Positions 12,001 through 17,676 are shown, numbered from the stretch's first letter. The stretch is DNA of 17,676 nt from Candidatus Krumholzibacteriia bacterium (GCA_036478295.1 JAZGDW010000284.1:1-17676), one strand, 5' to 3'. Numbers: made by a program.

Positions 12001-15000
12001 CTCTCGATGATGGCCGGAAAGGTCGAGTCGAGTTCCACCTGAAAGGCCTCGACAAAACTGTCGCCGATAACAGCGATCCGGTATGTGTCGCGGGGTTTGG
12101 CAAGCGATCGTGCGCGATCCCGCCAGCCGAAGCTGTTGATCCTGCCGGTAATCGCATGGTCGTTCTCCCGGGCGTCCCAGTAGGTGCGGTTCGGCGTGAA
12201 GCGCCAGCCGAGCAGCGCGTCCGGCTCGGACCACGACTTCCGCGCACCGAACAGGTGGGTCGTGGCAAGCAGGACTTCTAATGCCAGCAGGAACGCCCCG
12301 AAGACCAGCAATGAGAAAAGCACACGTCTCGTCATAATCGGCTACCGAACATTCTAACGAACTCCGCCGCAAAATGATTGCCGACAACGCGAAGTGGTCA
12401 TGCCCCTCACGGGTGGGCACGGTTACTGGTTCGACACGTTCGTTTTTTGAACCAGACTCGCCAGACGATCGAACACGTCGTCGACGGCGATCGCCTGCAT
12501 ACAGTCGGCTCTCCCCTGGGAGAGGCATTGCGCCCGGGCCGGCGACACCGGTGCGAACACACACGGACTGCACTCGAAGTGCTGATGCAGCACGGCGTGG
12601 TCGCCCTTGCTACCGATGGGCCCGTAGTTGGCGGGACTGGACGGGCCGAAAAGCGCGACGACGGGAACGCCCAGGGCAACCGCCATGTGCAAGGTTCCGG
12701 TATCCGGCGTGACGACCACGCTCGACGCCGCGATGAGCGCCGCTGTCGTGCGGATGTCGGTGTCGTTGACGACAATCTCGTTCACGGCGAGGCGGGCTAC
12801 CCTGTCCAGGCTCTCCCATTCGCGTGGCCCCGCGTTCAAGATAACCCTCGCACCCAGCCTGTCGACAGCCAGGTCGACGAGAGCTGCGACATGCTCCGCC
12901 GGCCACGGCCGCAGCAGCTCGTTCGGAGCGCAGGCGGGCTGAATAAAGACCACGCGGTCCGTCGGGCGGATACCCTGCGCCCCCAGAAACCGGCGAGCGT
13001 TTGCGGTGTCCTTGTCGGTCAGGCATAGCGCCATGTCGGTGGAGGGGACCCCCTCGTCCTCGAGGAGTGGAGCGAGCACACCAAGGTTGTTTCGAATCGT
13101 GTGAATCCCCTGATCCCACTCGTAGTGGCTGTGCAGAAGGCGATTTACTTTGCGCGAGATTCCGATTCTGTATTTCGCGCGGATGAACCAGGACAGGAAC
13201 ACGTAGGCAGAGGACGACTCGAACAGGATCGCCAGATCGTACCTGCGCCACAGTGGGAGGATGATTTTGAGTTTGTCCAGCGGTGAGCCGTTTTTGTCAT
13301 AGACGATGAGGTCATTGATCTCCGGACTCTCCTCCAATATGGTCTTGCCGTACGGACCGGTCAGGACGTCAAGCCGGGCGTCCGGATACCGCGCTGCCAG
13401 CCAGCGGATCGCTGGCGTCGTCATCAGCATGTCGCCGACGCGCCCGTCTCTTATCACAAGTATGCGGCGTGGATCATCGATTCTTGTCATTCTCGCACTC
13501 GACTTGCTTGCCCGGAGGCAGGACCCAAGCCTGCGGGTGTTTCTCGAATCCCATCCGTGGATAGTAGTCGACCGCGCCCGGCGCCGACAAGAGGATCAGC
13601 GAGCATCGGGGCCCGAGTCTCTCCCTGGTCAGGCGGATCAGTTCACGGCCGACGCCGTGTCCCTGAAAGGCCTCCTCCACCGCGAGGTCCGACAGGTAGG
13701 CGGCGTACGAAAAATCCGTCATCGATCTGGCGATGCCGATCAGCTTTCTCTCGCTCCGTGCCGTTACGATCAGGTTGGCGTTTTTGACCATTTTCTCGAT
13801 ACACTCGCGATCATCGATCGGTCTTCGCTCGCCGAGTGTGGACGACCGGAGTACCTCTGTGAATTCATCCACGCTCACCCGGTCACCGACCTTGTACAGA
13901 ATCTCGGCCATCGGTTCCCTTTCTGATTTTCTTGACGATGAGTGTCGCAGCGTACGGGGCCACGATCCAAAATGAAATGATGAGGGCCCAGGCAAGGGGA
14001 TCCTTGGGCATGGCCCCGAACTCTTGTACGTCAAAATGAGGTTCCCCCAGGACCAGGGCCAGCGGAATTCCCGGGACGTTCACCCAGAAAAGGGCGGGAA
14101 GGAACATGAATATGAACGCGAACGGTGTCCCCGAATAAACGATGATGGGTGGCAAGTTCACGATGAGGAGCAAGACGCCAAACAGCTTGAGGTCACGCTT
14201 TTGCAGGCCAAGAACACTCATGCGCGGAGCCCTCACTCCCTGATCATCGTTAGCAACATCTTGAACCTCTGGGGCGCGTCCACCGCGTGCGGTTTGTTCG
14301 CGGGCATCGCCGCCTTATCCGACGGCAAAAAGAGCGCCCTGCGCTATCCGGGTCGAGTACGCGCTCTGCTCGAGGGTCAGGTACGTGCCGTCTACTTGTT
14401 TTTTACTTGCTCGATACTCTCTGGCGTTTTCTTCTGACCAGAAGAATAGTGAGTTGCGTCAGTAAGCGTCGATGATATTTGGCTCCGAAAACTTCACCCA
14501 GTCCACGCGGGGTTCAAACACGAGGAGTTCCGGTGGGCCTTCCTCCACGCGGTATTTCAATTCGCTGTCGACCACGATCCGCATCGGCGAGCCGCTGTGC
14601 GCGCAAGTTGTCCGGATCTCCACGGCGACCGAGGTTTGTCGTAAATGCCCCTGCACGAAGGGCGCGGCAATCGTGTCCTCCGCTCAGGCCGCGTCCAGCC
14701 GTTCCCCCGTACTGAAGACCAGGTGGTGACCCGTGATCTCAGCGGTCACGGGGAACGCCCAGGAGACGGCGCCCCACTCGTTTCGCACAAGGAAAAAGAG
14801 GTTTTTCTCGAGCTCTTCGAGCATGGCTTCTGTTTTGCCTAGCGGCAGCCCGAGACCCTCCGCAATGTGCACCGGCTCAATCGGCTCGCCCAGACGGGGA
14901 AGCTCCCTGACTACGAAGTTTCGAATCAGATGGTGCTCATCGGACATGAAGCTGAGCCTGGTTCGACCATGCTCGGGCACCTTGGACAGGTGCCCCTCCC

Positions 15001-17676
15001 AGGTTTGGCGGGAGATCGTTCGAATGTCCTGCCCGCGGCCTACGAGCACCGAGTCGTCCATGCCGTGGCTCAAAAGACACATCCGAAGGTCAGCGTGTCC
15101 GAATCGAAGGTCACAGACCCGATAGCGGGACTCTGCCCGGTGATTCTCAAGACAACGTCCTCGGTGCAGGGCGGGTCGAAGAGTTTCACTCCGGCGTTTA
15201 TCTTGGCGACTGTCAGCGTGTCCACCTGCCCCGGGTTCAGCCGGCCGCCCCAGGCGGTGGCGAAATCAATCCGTCCCAACTTCGCATTCGTACGTACGAG
15301 AAACACGTCCGCGCCGGGAACGGTCACCGACACTGTGTCTCCGGTCAGATTGGAAACCTCCACGGAGACGGTTGCCTGTATGGGATCCGGGGGTACGATG
15401 GGCATGAGATTCGCGCCGATCGTTCCGCTGAGAAATCGAAACTGCAGCCGGGGAGCTACCCTGAACGTGGGATCGTCGTCGCTGCAGCCGAACGTCGCGA
15501 GCAGAACGACCGCAGCGACACCAATTATTCTGGATAAGAAGCGCATGATCGCTCCCGCGCGCTAGCTCGTCACGAGCCAACCCGACACGTAACTATACCC
15601 TATTTGCCGGAGGGTTTTCGAGGCCCACTTTGCTTGTCGCCAACGCGTCCGATCTTGACGTTTGCGGCCATGAAGTTCTGCCCTCTCACCGATGAGCCGG
15701 CCATTCGGCGAAGCATCGCGATCTGGCCGACGTGGGTCATCGCGTCGGACAGCGGCCCCTGGAAAACCTTCCGCAGAATGTCCTCTTCGGGCGAGTGTTC
15801 AACCAGCGCGCCATCCACCCGGGCCAGGAGTTCGTGAAACCGGGATATTTCATCATCGAACGCCAGGTCCGACTGAGGATCAGTATGCGCCGTGCCCGAT
15901 ACGTGGCGGTGCGCGGACGTAAGCGCATCGTTCATGTGATGGACGATCTCGTGCGGTGTTCGAACGCCGTGCCCGGCTTCGAAGCCACCAAACCCGGCTG
16001 GAGCGCCCCGCACGGCTGTCTGGAGCCTGTACGCGAGTGTCGCCAGATAATGTCGTATTGTGTCCGTTGCGCTTGCCATAAACACGGGGTCTTATTCACG
16101 CTTGTTCAGCATCTGCTCGAATGCCTCGATATTCCTTGCGAGATTTGGGCTCAACGGCAAAACGTCCCTGGAAACGCGCTCGTTCATCGCCGCCATTCTT
16201 TCCACCGGCTGTTCCCCGGGTCGGTCCCCCTTCCCGGGTTCGCCGGTCACGCGGCGGTCTCATTGATCGGACCACACGGCCAGCTCGTTCCCATCGGGAT
16301 CGGTAAAATGAAAGCGACTTCCCCCGGGAAAGTCGAACGGCTCCTTGGTGATCTTCCCACCGCACTCACTTATTTTGGCTGCCATCTCCTTCAAGTCCTT
16401 GGCGTAGATTACGGTCAGCGGGCCGCCCTGAGTTGTCGCCTTCGCCGTACGGAATCCCCCGGCAAGCCTGCCGTCGCTAAAGCTCGTGTAGTCCGGTCCG
16501 TAGTCGGTGAACACCCAGCCGAACACGCCGGAGTAGAATTTCTTGGCCTGGGCCGGATCGGTTGATGGAAACTCAATGTAATCTATGCGCCGTTCCTGTT
16601 CCTCCTGGCTCATGATCTATTCCTCCTTGATTTCAGCTGCGATTCTCGCGCACGAGTCCCGCCGCATGTCAACCTGCCTCCTGCCGTCTCAACAATAGAA
16701 TGAATATCAATACGTGCGATACCAGTAAGGCCGGGACAACGACAGCAGGAATAAAATAGGTGGCTCCCATTTGTCCGTCCTGAGTGTAGCGCAGGCCGCG
16801 CGCGACGGCGTTGATCAAATCGAGGGTGCCCTCCACATTGAAGATCCAGACCAGCACGATGGCCAGGCGCCACGCTTTGCGAAGAGCCAGGATCGCCACC
16901 AAAGCCAGCACGGCCGCCAGAAGATCACCGTACGCGGCCGGCTCGGCAAATCGCGGATCGAGGGCCTCCGACGTAACACCGGTGATCAAGAAAGCCAACC
17001 CGATAAAGCGGAACGAGTGAAATAGCAGCAGTGGCGTAAGAGCGTTTGCCCGAGTCAGGGCCAGCAGACGCGGCATCACATACCACCTGGCGATCAGGCC
17101 GTAGGCGACGAAGGCCAATCCAATGCTGATTGGCAGGATTAATTCAAGCAGCATTCGCCCATCCTCCTCCGGGTTGGGTCGTTGTGCGACTCCGGCGCCT
17201 CACAGGGTCCACGGGACGCCTTATACCGCGTCGTCAGTCTTCTCCCAGTAACCGAATTCCGGTTCGTAGCATGAGCCTTCGATATCGCCGACCTTATCCT
17301 GCATAAAGGCCTGTGCGTCCGCGATCGCTCGATTATAGACGGTCGGGCCGATCTCCTTGAGACAGAATTCCAGAAGCAGCGACGCCTTCAAGTCACCGAT
17401 CTCCTCGTCCATGTGCTCTTCGAAGTAGCGCTTGATCGACGCGATCAGGCGGTCTTCCACTTCTTTGGATAGCTTGTTTACCATGAGCCTCCAGGTGTTC
17501 AAGGCCTATCTCTAAGCCCCCTATCGCGCCAGTGCATACCGGTACACGGCATAGTCCTGCTCTTCGTGTAGAGTAATGCGGTAGATGAACCCGCCTGTCA
17601 CAATGGCGGTGCTGTTCAGGTTCGGCAGCGTCACCCTGCCGATATCCGTCCCATCGGGACTTAGCACGTCGAAGAT

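Follow-up and report, generated by a model that had tools for sequence, protein, structure and literature searches.

A MerB-like gene with in-frame UGA codons, predicted to encode selenocysteine, at both catalytic cysteine positions in a Candidatus Krumholzibacteriia bacterium

The stretch of DNA analysed here (the window) comprises 17,676 nucleotides from a Candidatus Krumholzibacteriia bacterium and carries a MerB-like gene that is interrupted twice by in-frame TGA codons (Table 1). When TGA is read through, the frame stays open for its full length on the minus strand, from 15061 down to 14315, and terminates in TAA. Mechanical ORF calling of the region yields reading frames at 14684-15082 (132 aa) and 14459-14656 (65 aa) and a tail of less than 50 aa, reproducing the pieces into which, according to the genome-wide survey's note, a gene caller had split a single gene as two genes and an uncalled tail. 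The single-gene reading is borne out by protein conservation, which crosses both TGAs in an alignment of 21 full-length homologues and in 160 related DNA loci, and the gene is thereby confirmed as intact and the observation as real. Immediately upstream lies a gene for a predicted lipoprotein, which is probably co-transcribed with the MerB-like gene. The lipoprotein gave no match in Pfam or NCBIfam and is not among the shared neighbours of the family, distant relatives (30-39% identity) being present in three of 12 family genomes.

Table 1. Features of the MerB-like locus; positions are counted from the first nucleotide of the window.
Feature	Position	Strand	Remarks
MerB-like selenoprotein gene (predicted)	14315..15061	minus	248 codons, ATG 15059-15061 to TAA 14315-14317; PF03243, MerB fold, conservation across both TGAs
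UGA codon 126, predicted Sec126 (site 1)	14684..14686	minus	Equivalent of MerB Cys96; motif A-A-U-A-E-D
UGA codon 201, predicted Sec201 (site 2)	14459..14461	minus	Equivalent of MerB Cys159; motif A-Y-U-R-N-S
Asp129 codon	14675..14677	minus	Equivalent of MerB proton donor Asp99; nearly invariant in alignment A1
Cys153 codon	14603..14605	minus	Equivalent of buried structural MerB Cys117; invariant in alignment A1
SECIS hairpin 1	14647..14663	minus	Stem GCCCUU/AGGGGC, loop CGUGC, codons 133-139; -8.6 kcal/mol
SECIS hairpin 2	14429..14446	minus	Stem UUCUUCU/AGAAGAA, loop GGUC, codons 206-211 (TTC TTC TGG TCA GAA GAA)
Upstream predicted lipoprotein gene	15070..15546	minus	158 aa; ends in TGA 8 nt before the MerB-like start codon

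The two interruptions recur at the same positions in relatives of the gene. TGA occupies both sites in 153 of the 160 related loci (79/80 from species genomes and 74/80 from metagenomes). In four further loci only site 2 is TGA and site 1 is TGC or TGT, and in the last three the contig ends short of site 2. Taken singly, site 1 is TGA in 79/80 loci from genomes and 77/80 from metagenomes and TGC or TGT in the remainder, and site 2 is TGA in every locus that extends that far (80 from genomes, 77 from metagenomes). Neither TAA nor TAG was found at either site among the 160 loci. The related loci come from about ten phyla, and such recurrence of this codon at both positions is far beyond chance. 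In protein databases 124 homologues were found, the same number as in the genome-wide survey's note. Among the 120 of these that were listed, 62 break off directly in front of site 1, 28 carry Cys there and break off directly in front of site 2, 24 show Trp at both sites and one has Trp at site 1 and stops before site 2; the others are one Ser/Cys form, one Gly/Leu form and three odd sequences. Cys at site 2 is found in the homologues P0012, P0122 and P0127, which are distant Ser/Cys forms.

The genome possesses machinery for decoding UGA as selenocysteine, in agreement with the earlier claim. SelA (476.2 bits), SelB (383.5 bits) and tRNA-Sec (68.1 bits; anticodon tca by ARAGORN) were identified together with SelD, of which there is just an N-terminal piece, located where a contig ends and with a UGA of its own within C-A-G-U-A-S-K. 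SelA scores above its cut-off in 199/208 genomes of the phylum and in 36 of the 40 carrier genomes of the family, leaving four carriers without SelA at this level.

Each UGA is followed by a conserved hairpin within the coding sequence. The hairpins start 20 nt after the first and 12 nt after the second UGA, with UGA-to-loop distances of 26 and 19 nt. Synonymous entropy amounts to 0.74-0.99 of expectation (about 0.9) in gene windows touching neither hairpin, the only dips, to 0.37-0.40, coinciding with the two hairpins (codons 133-138 and 206-211). Each of the five core pairs of hairpin 1 is intact in 80-81 of 81 genes, with the outer two less strictly kept (72/81 and 53/81), and the loop is retained in 73/81. 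The seven stem pairs of hairpin 2 persist in 79-81 of 81 genes, its loop in 80/81; a possible lower stem reaching 14412-14458 is less conserved. It must be noted that the stems vary little, a double change occurring in only two genes and at one pair, and the support is therefore one of conservation and wobble changes rather than of many compensatory pairs. Most of hairpin 1 is still retained in the loci with Cys at site 1, four members of one close lineage. The reservation in the genome-wide survey's note that the SECIS elements had been judged by hairpin prediction only is resolved by the synonymous-site conservation and the pair counts over 81 genes. The folding energies quoted there, -24.5 and -13.3 kcal/mol, are nevertheless not those of the conserved hairpins, the second of which folds at -5.8 kcal/mol alone and at -8.5 kcal/mol with the lower stem; the value of -13.3 kcal/mol could be reproduced on a 53-nt stretch, but belongs to a different, non-conserved fold. 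No Rfam family matched either hairpin. In its GGUC loop and 12-nt spacer, hairpin 2 is similar to the E. coli fdhF SECIS.

The bacterial SECIS model, as given for the bSECISearch consensus in the legend to Fig. 2 of PMC13188914, describes a loop of 3-9 nt with a G in its first two positions, a stem of 4-16 bp, a spacing of 16-37 nt and a minimum free energy of at most -7.5 kcal/mol. The site 1 hairpin lies within these bounds (5-nt loop, 6 bp, 26 nt, -8.6 kcal/mol). The site 2 hairpin does so in its loop (4 nt), stem (7 bp) and spacing (19 nt) and only marginally in its energy, since hairpin 2 alone misses the limit unless the less conserved lower stem is counted. The gene departs from the model in having two separate SECIS elements in one short gene, 75 codons apart.

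The read-through product is a homologue of MerB. Pfam MerB (PF03243) matches residues 110-233 with 42.9 bits against a gathering cut-off of 27, reproducing the score and span reported previously. Scores on the NCBIfam MerB models NF033555 and NF009710 are far under their cut-offs (31.1/200 and 36.0/193), as is that on the SaoL model NF040728 (27.3 bits against 140), and the statement that no specific curated model covers the protein holds for NCBIfam release 20, which yields only these sub-threshold MerB and SaoL matches. An AF2 model of the product reached a pLDDT of 92.1 and a pTM of 0.87, and in a Foldseek search of the PDB the best 11 matches were all MerB, the next ones having E values above 0.1. 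TM-scores by target length were 0.77-0.83 for ten MerB crystal chains and 0.61 for the NMR model 1s6l, at an identity to solved MerB structures of only 18-20%. Both the domain match above the gathering cut-off and the modelled structure thus uphold the MerB homology proposed earlier.

The residue equivalences were established by profile-to-PDB alignment, in which U126 falls on Cys96 (AWCALD), D129 on Asp99, C153 on Cys117 (HCA) and U201 on Cys159 (FCCH). MerB residue numbers follow the chain coordinates as printed, with the C160S mutant row serving as a cross-check, and verify the numbering given previously. In PDB 5c17 (MerB2) the Cys of GGTCKQ is aligned with the second TGA, as had been claimed. 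MerB is defined by Cys96, Asp99, Cys117 and Cys159, and PMC8261052 and PMC10114901 describe its thiolate/Asp protonolysis mechanism. Judged by the signature given in PMC8261052, the protein is not a canonical MerB with Cys at 96 and 159, both codons being TGA, and the predicted selenocysteines would be functional analogues; Asp99 and Cys117 of the canonical enzyme have their counterparts in D129 and C153.

Compared with MerB of plasmid R831b (EC 4.99.1.2; PDB 1S6L, 3F0O, 3F2F, 3FN8), the window protein has the fold in common, with Foldseek E values of about 1e-10 to 1e-11 and TM-scores by target length of 0.77-0.81 for the crystal chains and an E value of 8.2e-07 for the NMR model, and all four positions Cys96, Asp99, Cys117 and Cys159 are filled by functional equivalents. 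It differs in that both catalytic Cys are replaced by predicted Sec, that MerB Cys160 has no equivalent (Arg202), that about 35 additional residues are present at the N-terminus and that its family has neither a mer operon nor MerA in the carrier genomes. The best solved-structure match, by sequence as well as by profile, is MerB2 of Bacillus megaterium (PDB 5C17), with an E value of 3.4e-5 for profile A1 and the top TM-score by target length (0.83). MerB2 has Ser99 and Cys ligands, whereas the double-Sec family keeps the Asp and has predicted Sec ligands.

Building on the gene, recoding signals, decoding machinery, fold and residue equivalences documented above, we consider it very probable (about 0.85) that this is an intact selenoprotein gene with a MerB fold, in which predicted Sec126-Asp129-Sec201 replaces the catalytic triad. 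The earlier interpretation, one MerB-like gene with selenocysteine at both catalytic positions, is as a whole supported. Both UGAs would be decoded as selenocysteine by SelB and tRNA-Sec, each directed by its own in-frame SECIS, and the MerB fold would carry a rewritten triad while retaining the buried structural Cys153. In an organometallic substrate the soft metal or metalloid may, by homology with MerB, be bound by the two selenolates, and the carbon-metal bond may be cleaved by a proton from Asp129. The enzyme would act outside a mer operon and, since there is neither a MerA partner nor a conserved neighbour, the bound metal would have to exit by another route, through thiol or selenol exchange or as an inert selenide. 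Homology with MerB tips the balance slightly in favour of carbon-metal lyase chemistry. That organomercurials such as methylmercury are the natural substrate is a more tentative suggestion, and less likely than not. Selones are reported to cleave Hg-C bonds faster than thiones (PMC11639659), and selenoamino acids to demethylate methylmercury to HgSe (PMC10114901). A bis-selenolate Hg(II) product would be held very tightly, and turnover without MerA would be left unexplained.

The alternative that survives best is that the selenocysteines are real and the protein is no lyase, serving instead in binding, trafficking or sequestration of a soft metal or metalloid (Hg, Cu, Cd, As, selenium) or carrying a redox-active diselenide pair; we hold this to be possible but unlikely. 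According to the table in the review PMC13188914, redox enzymes prevail among selenoproteins and several of the predicted members are metal binders, and PMC8261052 and PMC10114901 describe binding of other metals by the MerB site and of Cu by the D99S variant. The genomic setting also agrees with such a role, as there is no MerA to receive a product and no operon context. MerA was above its cut-off in none of the 40 carrier genomes, the best match in the genome studied here scoring 324.7 against a cut-off of 454. No neighbour was common to more than 7 of 81 loci, and among 70 upstream genes MerR was found once and MerA, MerT or MerP never. Furthermore, there are homologues with Ser/Cys, or without a ligand, at the two sites. 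What speaks for a lyase is the near invariance of Asp129, a proton donor being required for lyase chemistry and not for mere binding, and the retention of the full MerB catalytic core including the Cys117 equivalent.

A reading of the UGAs as Trp, Cys or Gly, through a variant code or SECIS-independent read-through, is highly improbable. The 24 database entries with Trp at both sites could be taken in its favour, but show only how some gene callers translated TGA. Otherwise TGA acts as a normal stop: it terminates 5/9 Pfam-supported genes in the window, where none of the other genes has an internal stop, and 17/81 genes of the family itself. Only these two codons of the gene are TGA, they alternate with Cys codons, a conserved SECIS-type hairpin follows each of them, and SelA accompanies the gene in the carriers counted above.

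The one described MerB-like selenoprotein is SaoL, the 'selenocysteine-assisted organometallic lyase' of Haft and Gwadz (bioRxiv 10.1101/2022.07.06.499078), also listed in the reviews PMC9312934 and PMC13188914. In the preprint's account SaoL likewise has a MerB fold, Sec at the MerB Cys159 position and the Asp99 equivalent, is likewise truncated in databases at its UGA, and is proposed to perform organometallic chemistry. It is nonetheless even less probable that the window protein is a member of this family and part of a SAO system. SaoL as described there has a single Sec in a C-U dipeptide and Cys (Cys99) at the MerB Cys96 position, where the window protein has Y200-U201 and a second predicted Sec, U126. 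The same source places SaoL in a nine-gene SAO locus that is found in anaerobes, most of them Firmicutes, whereas the double-Sec family is without conserved neighbours and occurs mainly in Chloroflexota and Acidobacteriota. No Sao family was found among the NCBIfam matches of eight neighbouring genes. The identification as SaoL was rejected on the low NF040728 score, the Y-U in place of C-U and the missing SAO neighbourhood.

The least probable reading, a pseudogene or three separate small genes, might be suggested by the fragments obtained in standard ORF calling and the hundreds of 125-aa and 65-aa pieces in databases, but is refuted by the comparative data, as the same pair of interruptions, always TGA, recurs in the 153 double-TGA loci across phyla, the frame is intact with strong amino-acid conservation in all three pieces, and the joined pieces fold as one MerB domain (pLDDT 92). 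These pieces reflect how standard annotation chops the MerB-like double-Sec family into fragments.

If the lyase reading is extended to the family, one may speculate, with considerable doubt, on a selenium-dependent organometal lyase that operates without a mer operon through an all-selenolate metal-binding dyad, and that contributes methylmercury demethylation or other carbon-metal(loid) cleavage in soil and sediment bacteria such as Chloroflexota and Acidobacteriota. If true, the end product could be inert mercury selenide instead of Hg(0), the family would be a candidate for that part of microbial methylmercury degradation still without assigned agents, and the selenium and mercury cycles would be directly linked through biochemistry.

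The double-Sec family has a wide distribution among bacteria of soils and sediments, and no member was found in 72,556 plasmids. Within its phylum the gene is present in one of 208 genomes, in accordance with the earlier report of its absence from the other 207. The suspicion of a mis-binned contig raised on that occasion can be set aside, because positions 1-13884 of the window are collinear, at 70-77% nucleotide identity, with a genome of the same genus and the composition matches that usual for the host. The MerB-like gene itself sits in a variable block of the genome, and its probable origin is an ancient horizontal transfer into a lineage already using selenocysteine.

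The MerB-like gene is a real and intact gene encoding a protein of the MerB fold with two predicted selenocysteines, and it carries two SECIS elements. Read through both TGA codons it forms a single open frame, and mechanical ORF calling returned the same pieces into which, according to the genome-wide survey's note, the gene caller had split it. Among 120 listed database homologues, 62 stop exactly at the residue preceding the first TGA codon (site 1), 28 carry Cys at site 1 and stop directly in front of the second TGA codon (site 2), and 24 show W at both sites, which is TGA rendered as Trp by the gene caller; the remainder comprise one with W and then an end before site 2, one Ser/Cys form (written site 1/site 2), one Gly/Leu form and three odd ones. 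Since this search admits only proteins of at least 136 aa, Sec/Sec fragments of 125 aa are under-counted and Cys/Sec forms over-represented in these figures. An all-length search of representatives gave many 125-aa pieces together with many 65-aa pieces spanning residues 136-200.

Features of the MerB-like gene and of the block in which it lies (window positions)
Feature	Position	Strand	Remarks
MerB-like gene	15061 to 14315	minus	248-codon open frame once TGA is read through; terminator TAA; in block 13885-17676
Site 1, codon 126 (TGA)	14684-14686	minus	in-frame; predicted Sec126
Hairpin 1	14647-14663	minus	GCCCUU-CGUGC-AAGGGC, -8.6 kcal/mol
Site 2, codon 201 (TGA)	14459-14461	minus	in-frame; predicted Sec201
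Hairpin 2	14429-14446	minus	UUCUUCU-GGUC-AGAAGAA, -5.8 kcal/mol; -8.5 kcal/mol with lower stem
Small membrane ORF			in block 13885-17676
Lipoprotein, 158 aa			in block 13885-17676; lipobox L-A-T-F-G-C
His-rich protein, 161 aa			in block 13885-17676; without family match
Glyoxalase/VOC-fold protein			in block 13885-17676
Membrane protein, 161 aa			in block 13885-17676
DUF2164			in block 13885-17676

At the nucleotide level, TGA occupies both sites in 79 of the 80 species-genome loci that were kept (of 432), the remaining one being TGC/TGA. The metagenome loci were TGA/TGA in 74 of 80 cases, three carried TGC or TGT in place of the first TGA and three ran off the contig before reaching site 2; neither TAA nor TAG was ever found at either site among these 80 genome and 80 metagenome loci. 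The metagenome scan was made with an alignment of the Cys/Sec subfamily (A2) so as to gather further Cys forms, and its yield was mostly Sec/Sec genes. Conservation of residues runs on past both sites, examples being the stretches AEDAIAxPFVQG, which follows site 1, and FFWSEEHAREYR, which follows site 2. TGA is not generally a sense codon; it terminates five of the nine Pfam-supported genes of the window, all nine being free of internal stops, and ends 17 of 81 family genes. Two loci have a third in-frame TGA, located between the two conserved ones in L022 and downstream of site 2 in L031, where the third TGA may be the true stop because an unrelated C-terminal stretch comes after it.

The SECIS elements were analysed through synonymous-codon entropy per conserved residue, measured against the family's own codon usage in 81 aligned genes. 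The ratio was 0.74-0.99 in stretches touching neither hairpin and dropped to 0.37-0.40 at two stretches only, codons 133-138 (ACG CCC TTC GTG CAA GGG) and codons 206-211 (TTC TTC TGG TCA GAA GAA). All seven stem pairs of hairpin 2 are retained in 79-81 of the 81 genes, as are the five core pairs of hairpin 1 in 80-81, its two outer pairs being looser (72/81 and 53/81), and the loops are identical in 73/81 (CGUGC, hairpin 1) and 80/81 (GGUC, hairpin 2). Variation in the stems is chiefly wobble, with a double, compensatory change in only 2 of the 81 genes, so that the hairpins are supported by silent-site constraint and not by covariation. In the bacterial SECIS model as outlined in one figure legend (PMC13188914, Fig. 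2), the loop has 3-9 nt, the stem 4-16 bp, a G stands in the first two loop positions and the UGA lies 16-37 nt from the loop. Both hairpins, with UGA-to-loop spacings of 26 nt (hairpin 1) and 19 nt (hairpin 2), fit the model as given there, hairpin 2 only marginally so in energy. An Rfam scan of window positions 14200-15200 gave no matching family and only two chance-level lncRNA matches. Only four loci have Cys in place of the first Sec; they belong to one close lineage (80-87% identical) and mostly retain hairpin 1.

The host genome (3.52 Mb in 316 contigs, 90.9% complete, 5.0% contamination) has the Sec machinery that the survey's note had reported, with SelA at 476 bits, SelB at 383 bits and a tRNA-Sec at 68 bits, which ARAGORN called as tRNA-SeC with anticodon tca. 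SelD is an N-terminal fragment at a contig end (locus L090, contig C118:2-229, minus strand, in the window's own genome, G000), and since an in-frame TGA lies in its motif C-A-G-U-A-S-K, SelD too is a selenoprotein in this genome. About 20 nt downstream of this TGA a stem ACGCAA/UUGCGU enclosing a G-rich loop may form; it was spotted by eye and differs from the MFE fold. SelA scored above its cut-off in 36 of 40 carrier genomes; across the window's phylum it did so in 199 of 208. One carrier genome, G231, has a MerA-model paralogue (C153:342-1694; 394.6 bits, below the MerA cut-off) with one in-frame TGA, which may likewise be a selenoprotein, one belonging to the pyridine-nucleotide disulfide oxidoreductases.

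Assignment to the MerB fold was first indicated by the Pfam MerB match, reproduced here at 42.9 bits over residues 110-233, while the NCBIfam MerB models again scored 36.0 and 31.1 against cut-offs of 193 and 200, and, in agreement with the statement that no curated model covers the protein, none in NCBIfam release 20 claims it. An AlphaFold2 model based on 21 sequences reached a pLDDT of 92.1 and a pTM of 0.87, and in Foldseek against the PDB MerB and MerB2 accounted for all of its best 11 matches (E 3e-11 to 8e-7), the next ones having E >0.1; by target length, the ten crystal chains gave TM-scores of 0.77-0.83 and the NMR model 1s6l one of 0.61. When the family profile was aligned with PDB MerB, the Cys and Asp of A-W-C-A-L-D were matched by site 1 and D129, the Cys of H-C-A by C153, and the first of the two Cys in F-C-C-H by site 2, a register confirmed by the row of a C160S mutant (F-C-S-H). 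The Cys of PDB MerB2 (5c17) is aligned with the second TGA as previously noted, and the survey's MerB numbering proved correct by the printed chain coordinates, Cys96, Asp99, Cys117 and Cys159 corresponding to site 1, D129, C153 and site 2. These four residues serve as the signature in the definition of MerB given in PMC8261052.

Three full-length relatives (database proteins P0012, P0122 and P0127) combine Ser at site 1 with Cys at site 2, and five others (P0024, P0146, P0159, P0160 and P0265) have neither ligand. These two kinds of relatives suggest functional divergence within the wider clade. A Cys/Cys form was not seen among the relatives examined, which include Cys/Sec, Ser/Cys and ligand-less forms.

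As summarised by Haft and Gwadz in their preprint, the described MerB-like selenoprotein SaoL (NF040728) keeps Cys where MerB has Cys96; its single Sec is part of a C-U dipeptide in the place of Cys159, and it lies within a nine-gene SAO locus. In contrast, the window protein has Y-U instead of C-U, a second Sec and no SAO locus, and it scores 27.3 against a cut-off of 140 on the SaoL model, as the survey had recorded. SaoL was the only MerB-like selenoprotein found in the literature search, which covered the review tables of PMC9312934 and PMC13188914, and MerB is not mentioned in the searched text of the older selenoproteome papers PMC2398784 and PMC5029168. A two-Sec MerB-like family was thus not found described within that scope.

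By the accepted mechanism of MerB, two thiolates coordinate R-Hg+, the C-Hg bond is weakened, Asp99 gives the proton and Hg(II) is kept bound until it is handed to MerA, as described in PMC10114901. By homology, Sec126 and Sec201 would serve as ligands of a soft metal(loid) centre, with Asp129 protonating the leaving carbon. Among mimics of organomercurial lyase, selones are reported to be quicker at breaking Hg-C bonds than the corresponding sulfur compounds (PMC11639659), and selenoamino acids to demethylate MeHg to HgSe (PMC10114901), which makes a Sec-based metal step plausible from selenium chemistry. A carbon-metal lyase is the reading that we slightly favour, with a probability of roughly 0.55; organomercurials are a tentative and rather doubtful candidate for its natural substrate. 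The problem for the lyase reading is product release, since MerA is below its cut-off of 454 in the own genome (best score 324.7) and above it in none of 40 carrier genomes. The role of the family may instead be one of binding, sequestration or redox.

A lyase encoded by this family would act apart from any mer operon. Clustering of the ORFs within 5 kb of 81 loci revealed no conserved neighbour, the largest common cluster being present at 7/81, and no cluster common to other loci is also in the window. Pfam matches in 70 upstream genes (upstream side only) were a housekeeping miscellany with a single MerR, and 72,556 plasmids (PLSDB) held no family member and only two canonical merB matches, at 24% identity. 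On these grounds, together with the lack of MerA, the family is a stand-alone chromosomal gene outside the mer operon. The mercury-methylation protein HgcA (NF040863) was above its cut-off in 7 of 41 carriers (G208, G218, G220, G230, G232, G234 and G243) and not in the window's own genome; an association with mercury methylators is at most a lead.

According to PMC8261052, MerB is the sole known Hg-C-cleaving enzyme, and merB surveys screen for Cys96, Asp99 and Cys159. Such surveys and standard annotation miss the present family, as its genes are interrupted at each of the two catalytic codons. If it is active on organomercurials, gene-based estimates of the demethylation potential of soils and sediments, where the identities of demethylating microbes have been called elusive (PMC12130583; review PMC10114901), would be incomplete. 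For selenium biology the family offers a clean case in which the two ligands at a catalytic metal site are both predicted to be Sec, each served by a separate SECIS, and Cys/Sec and Ser/Cys variants exist in nature for comparison with the Sec/Sec forms.

The family is widespread and not rare, with 432 stretches encoding relatives in 185,579 species genomes and at least 500 in metagenome contigs. The 80 genome loci, all from MAGs, are assigned by their submitters to Chloroflexota (43), Acidobacteriota (21), Thermodesulfobacteriota (4), Bacillota (2) and five further phyla with one each, five being unplaced. A quick maximum-likelihood tree places the window protein in a supported group of eight members (SH-aLRT 97), the other seven coming from Acidobacteriota (five), Gemmatimonadota (one) and KSB1 (one). 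The highest identity of the window protein is 65%. The reported absence from the other 207 genomes of the phylum was confirmed, the gene being present in 1 of 208 (1 of 125 high-quality ones).

This absence had been ascribed, as probable, to horizontal acquisition or a mis-binned contig. Mis-binning is ruled out, as window positions 1-13884 are collinear with a same-genus contig at 70-77% nucleotide identity. A recent foreign insertion gains no support from composition, the GC content being 0.586 against 0.598 for the genome and the tetranucleotide distance of block 13885-17676 lying at the 13th percentile of host segments, which is host-like. The simplest explanation is that a Sec-competent lineage acquired the gene horizontally long ago. 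Collinearity breaks off inside a GNAT gene, and the borders of an insertion are not definable because the same-genus contig stops 1.2 kb past the break. The variable block from there to the contig end has no DNA match in the same-genus genome, and its genes are accessory; among 12 family genomes, three have relatives of the 158-aa lipoprotein, at only 30-39% identity, and none was found to have the 161-aa protein. The GNAT acetyltransferase ORF (13474-14034) and a 117-aa membrane ORF (13883-14236, minus strand) overlap as listed by about 150 nt, so the start of one or the other was probably called too far upstream.
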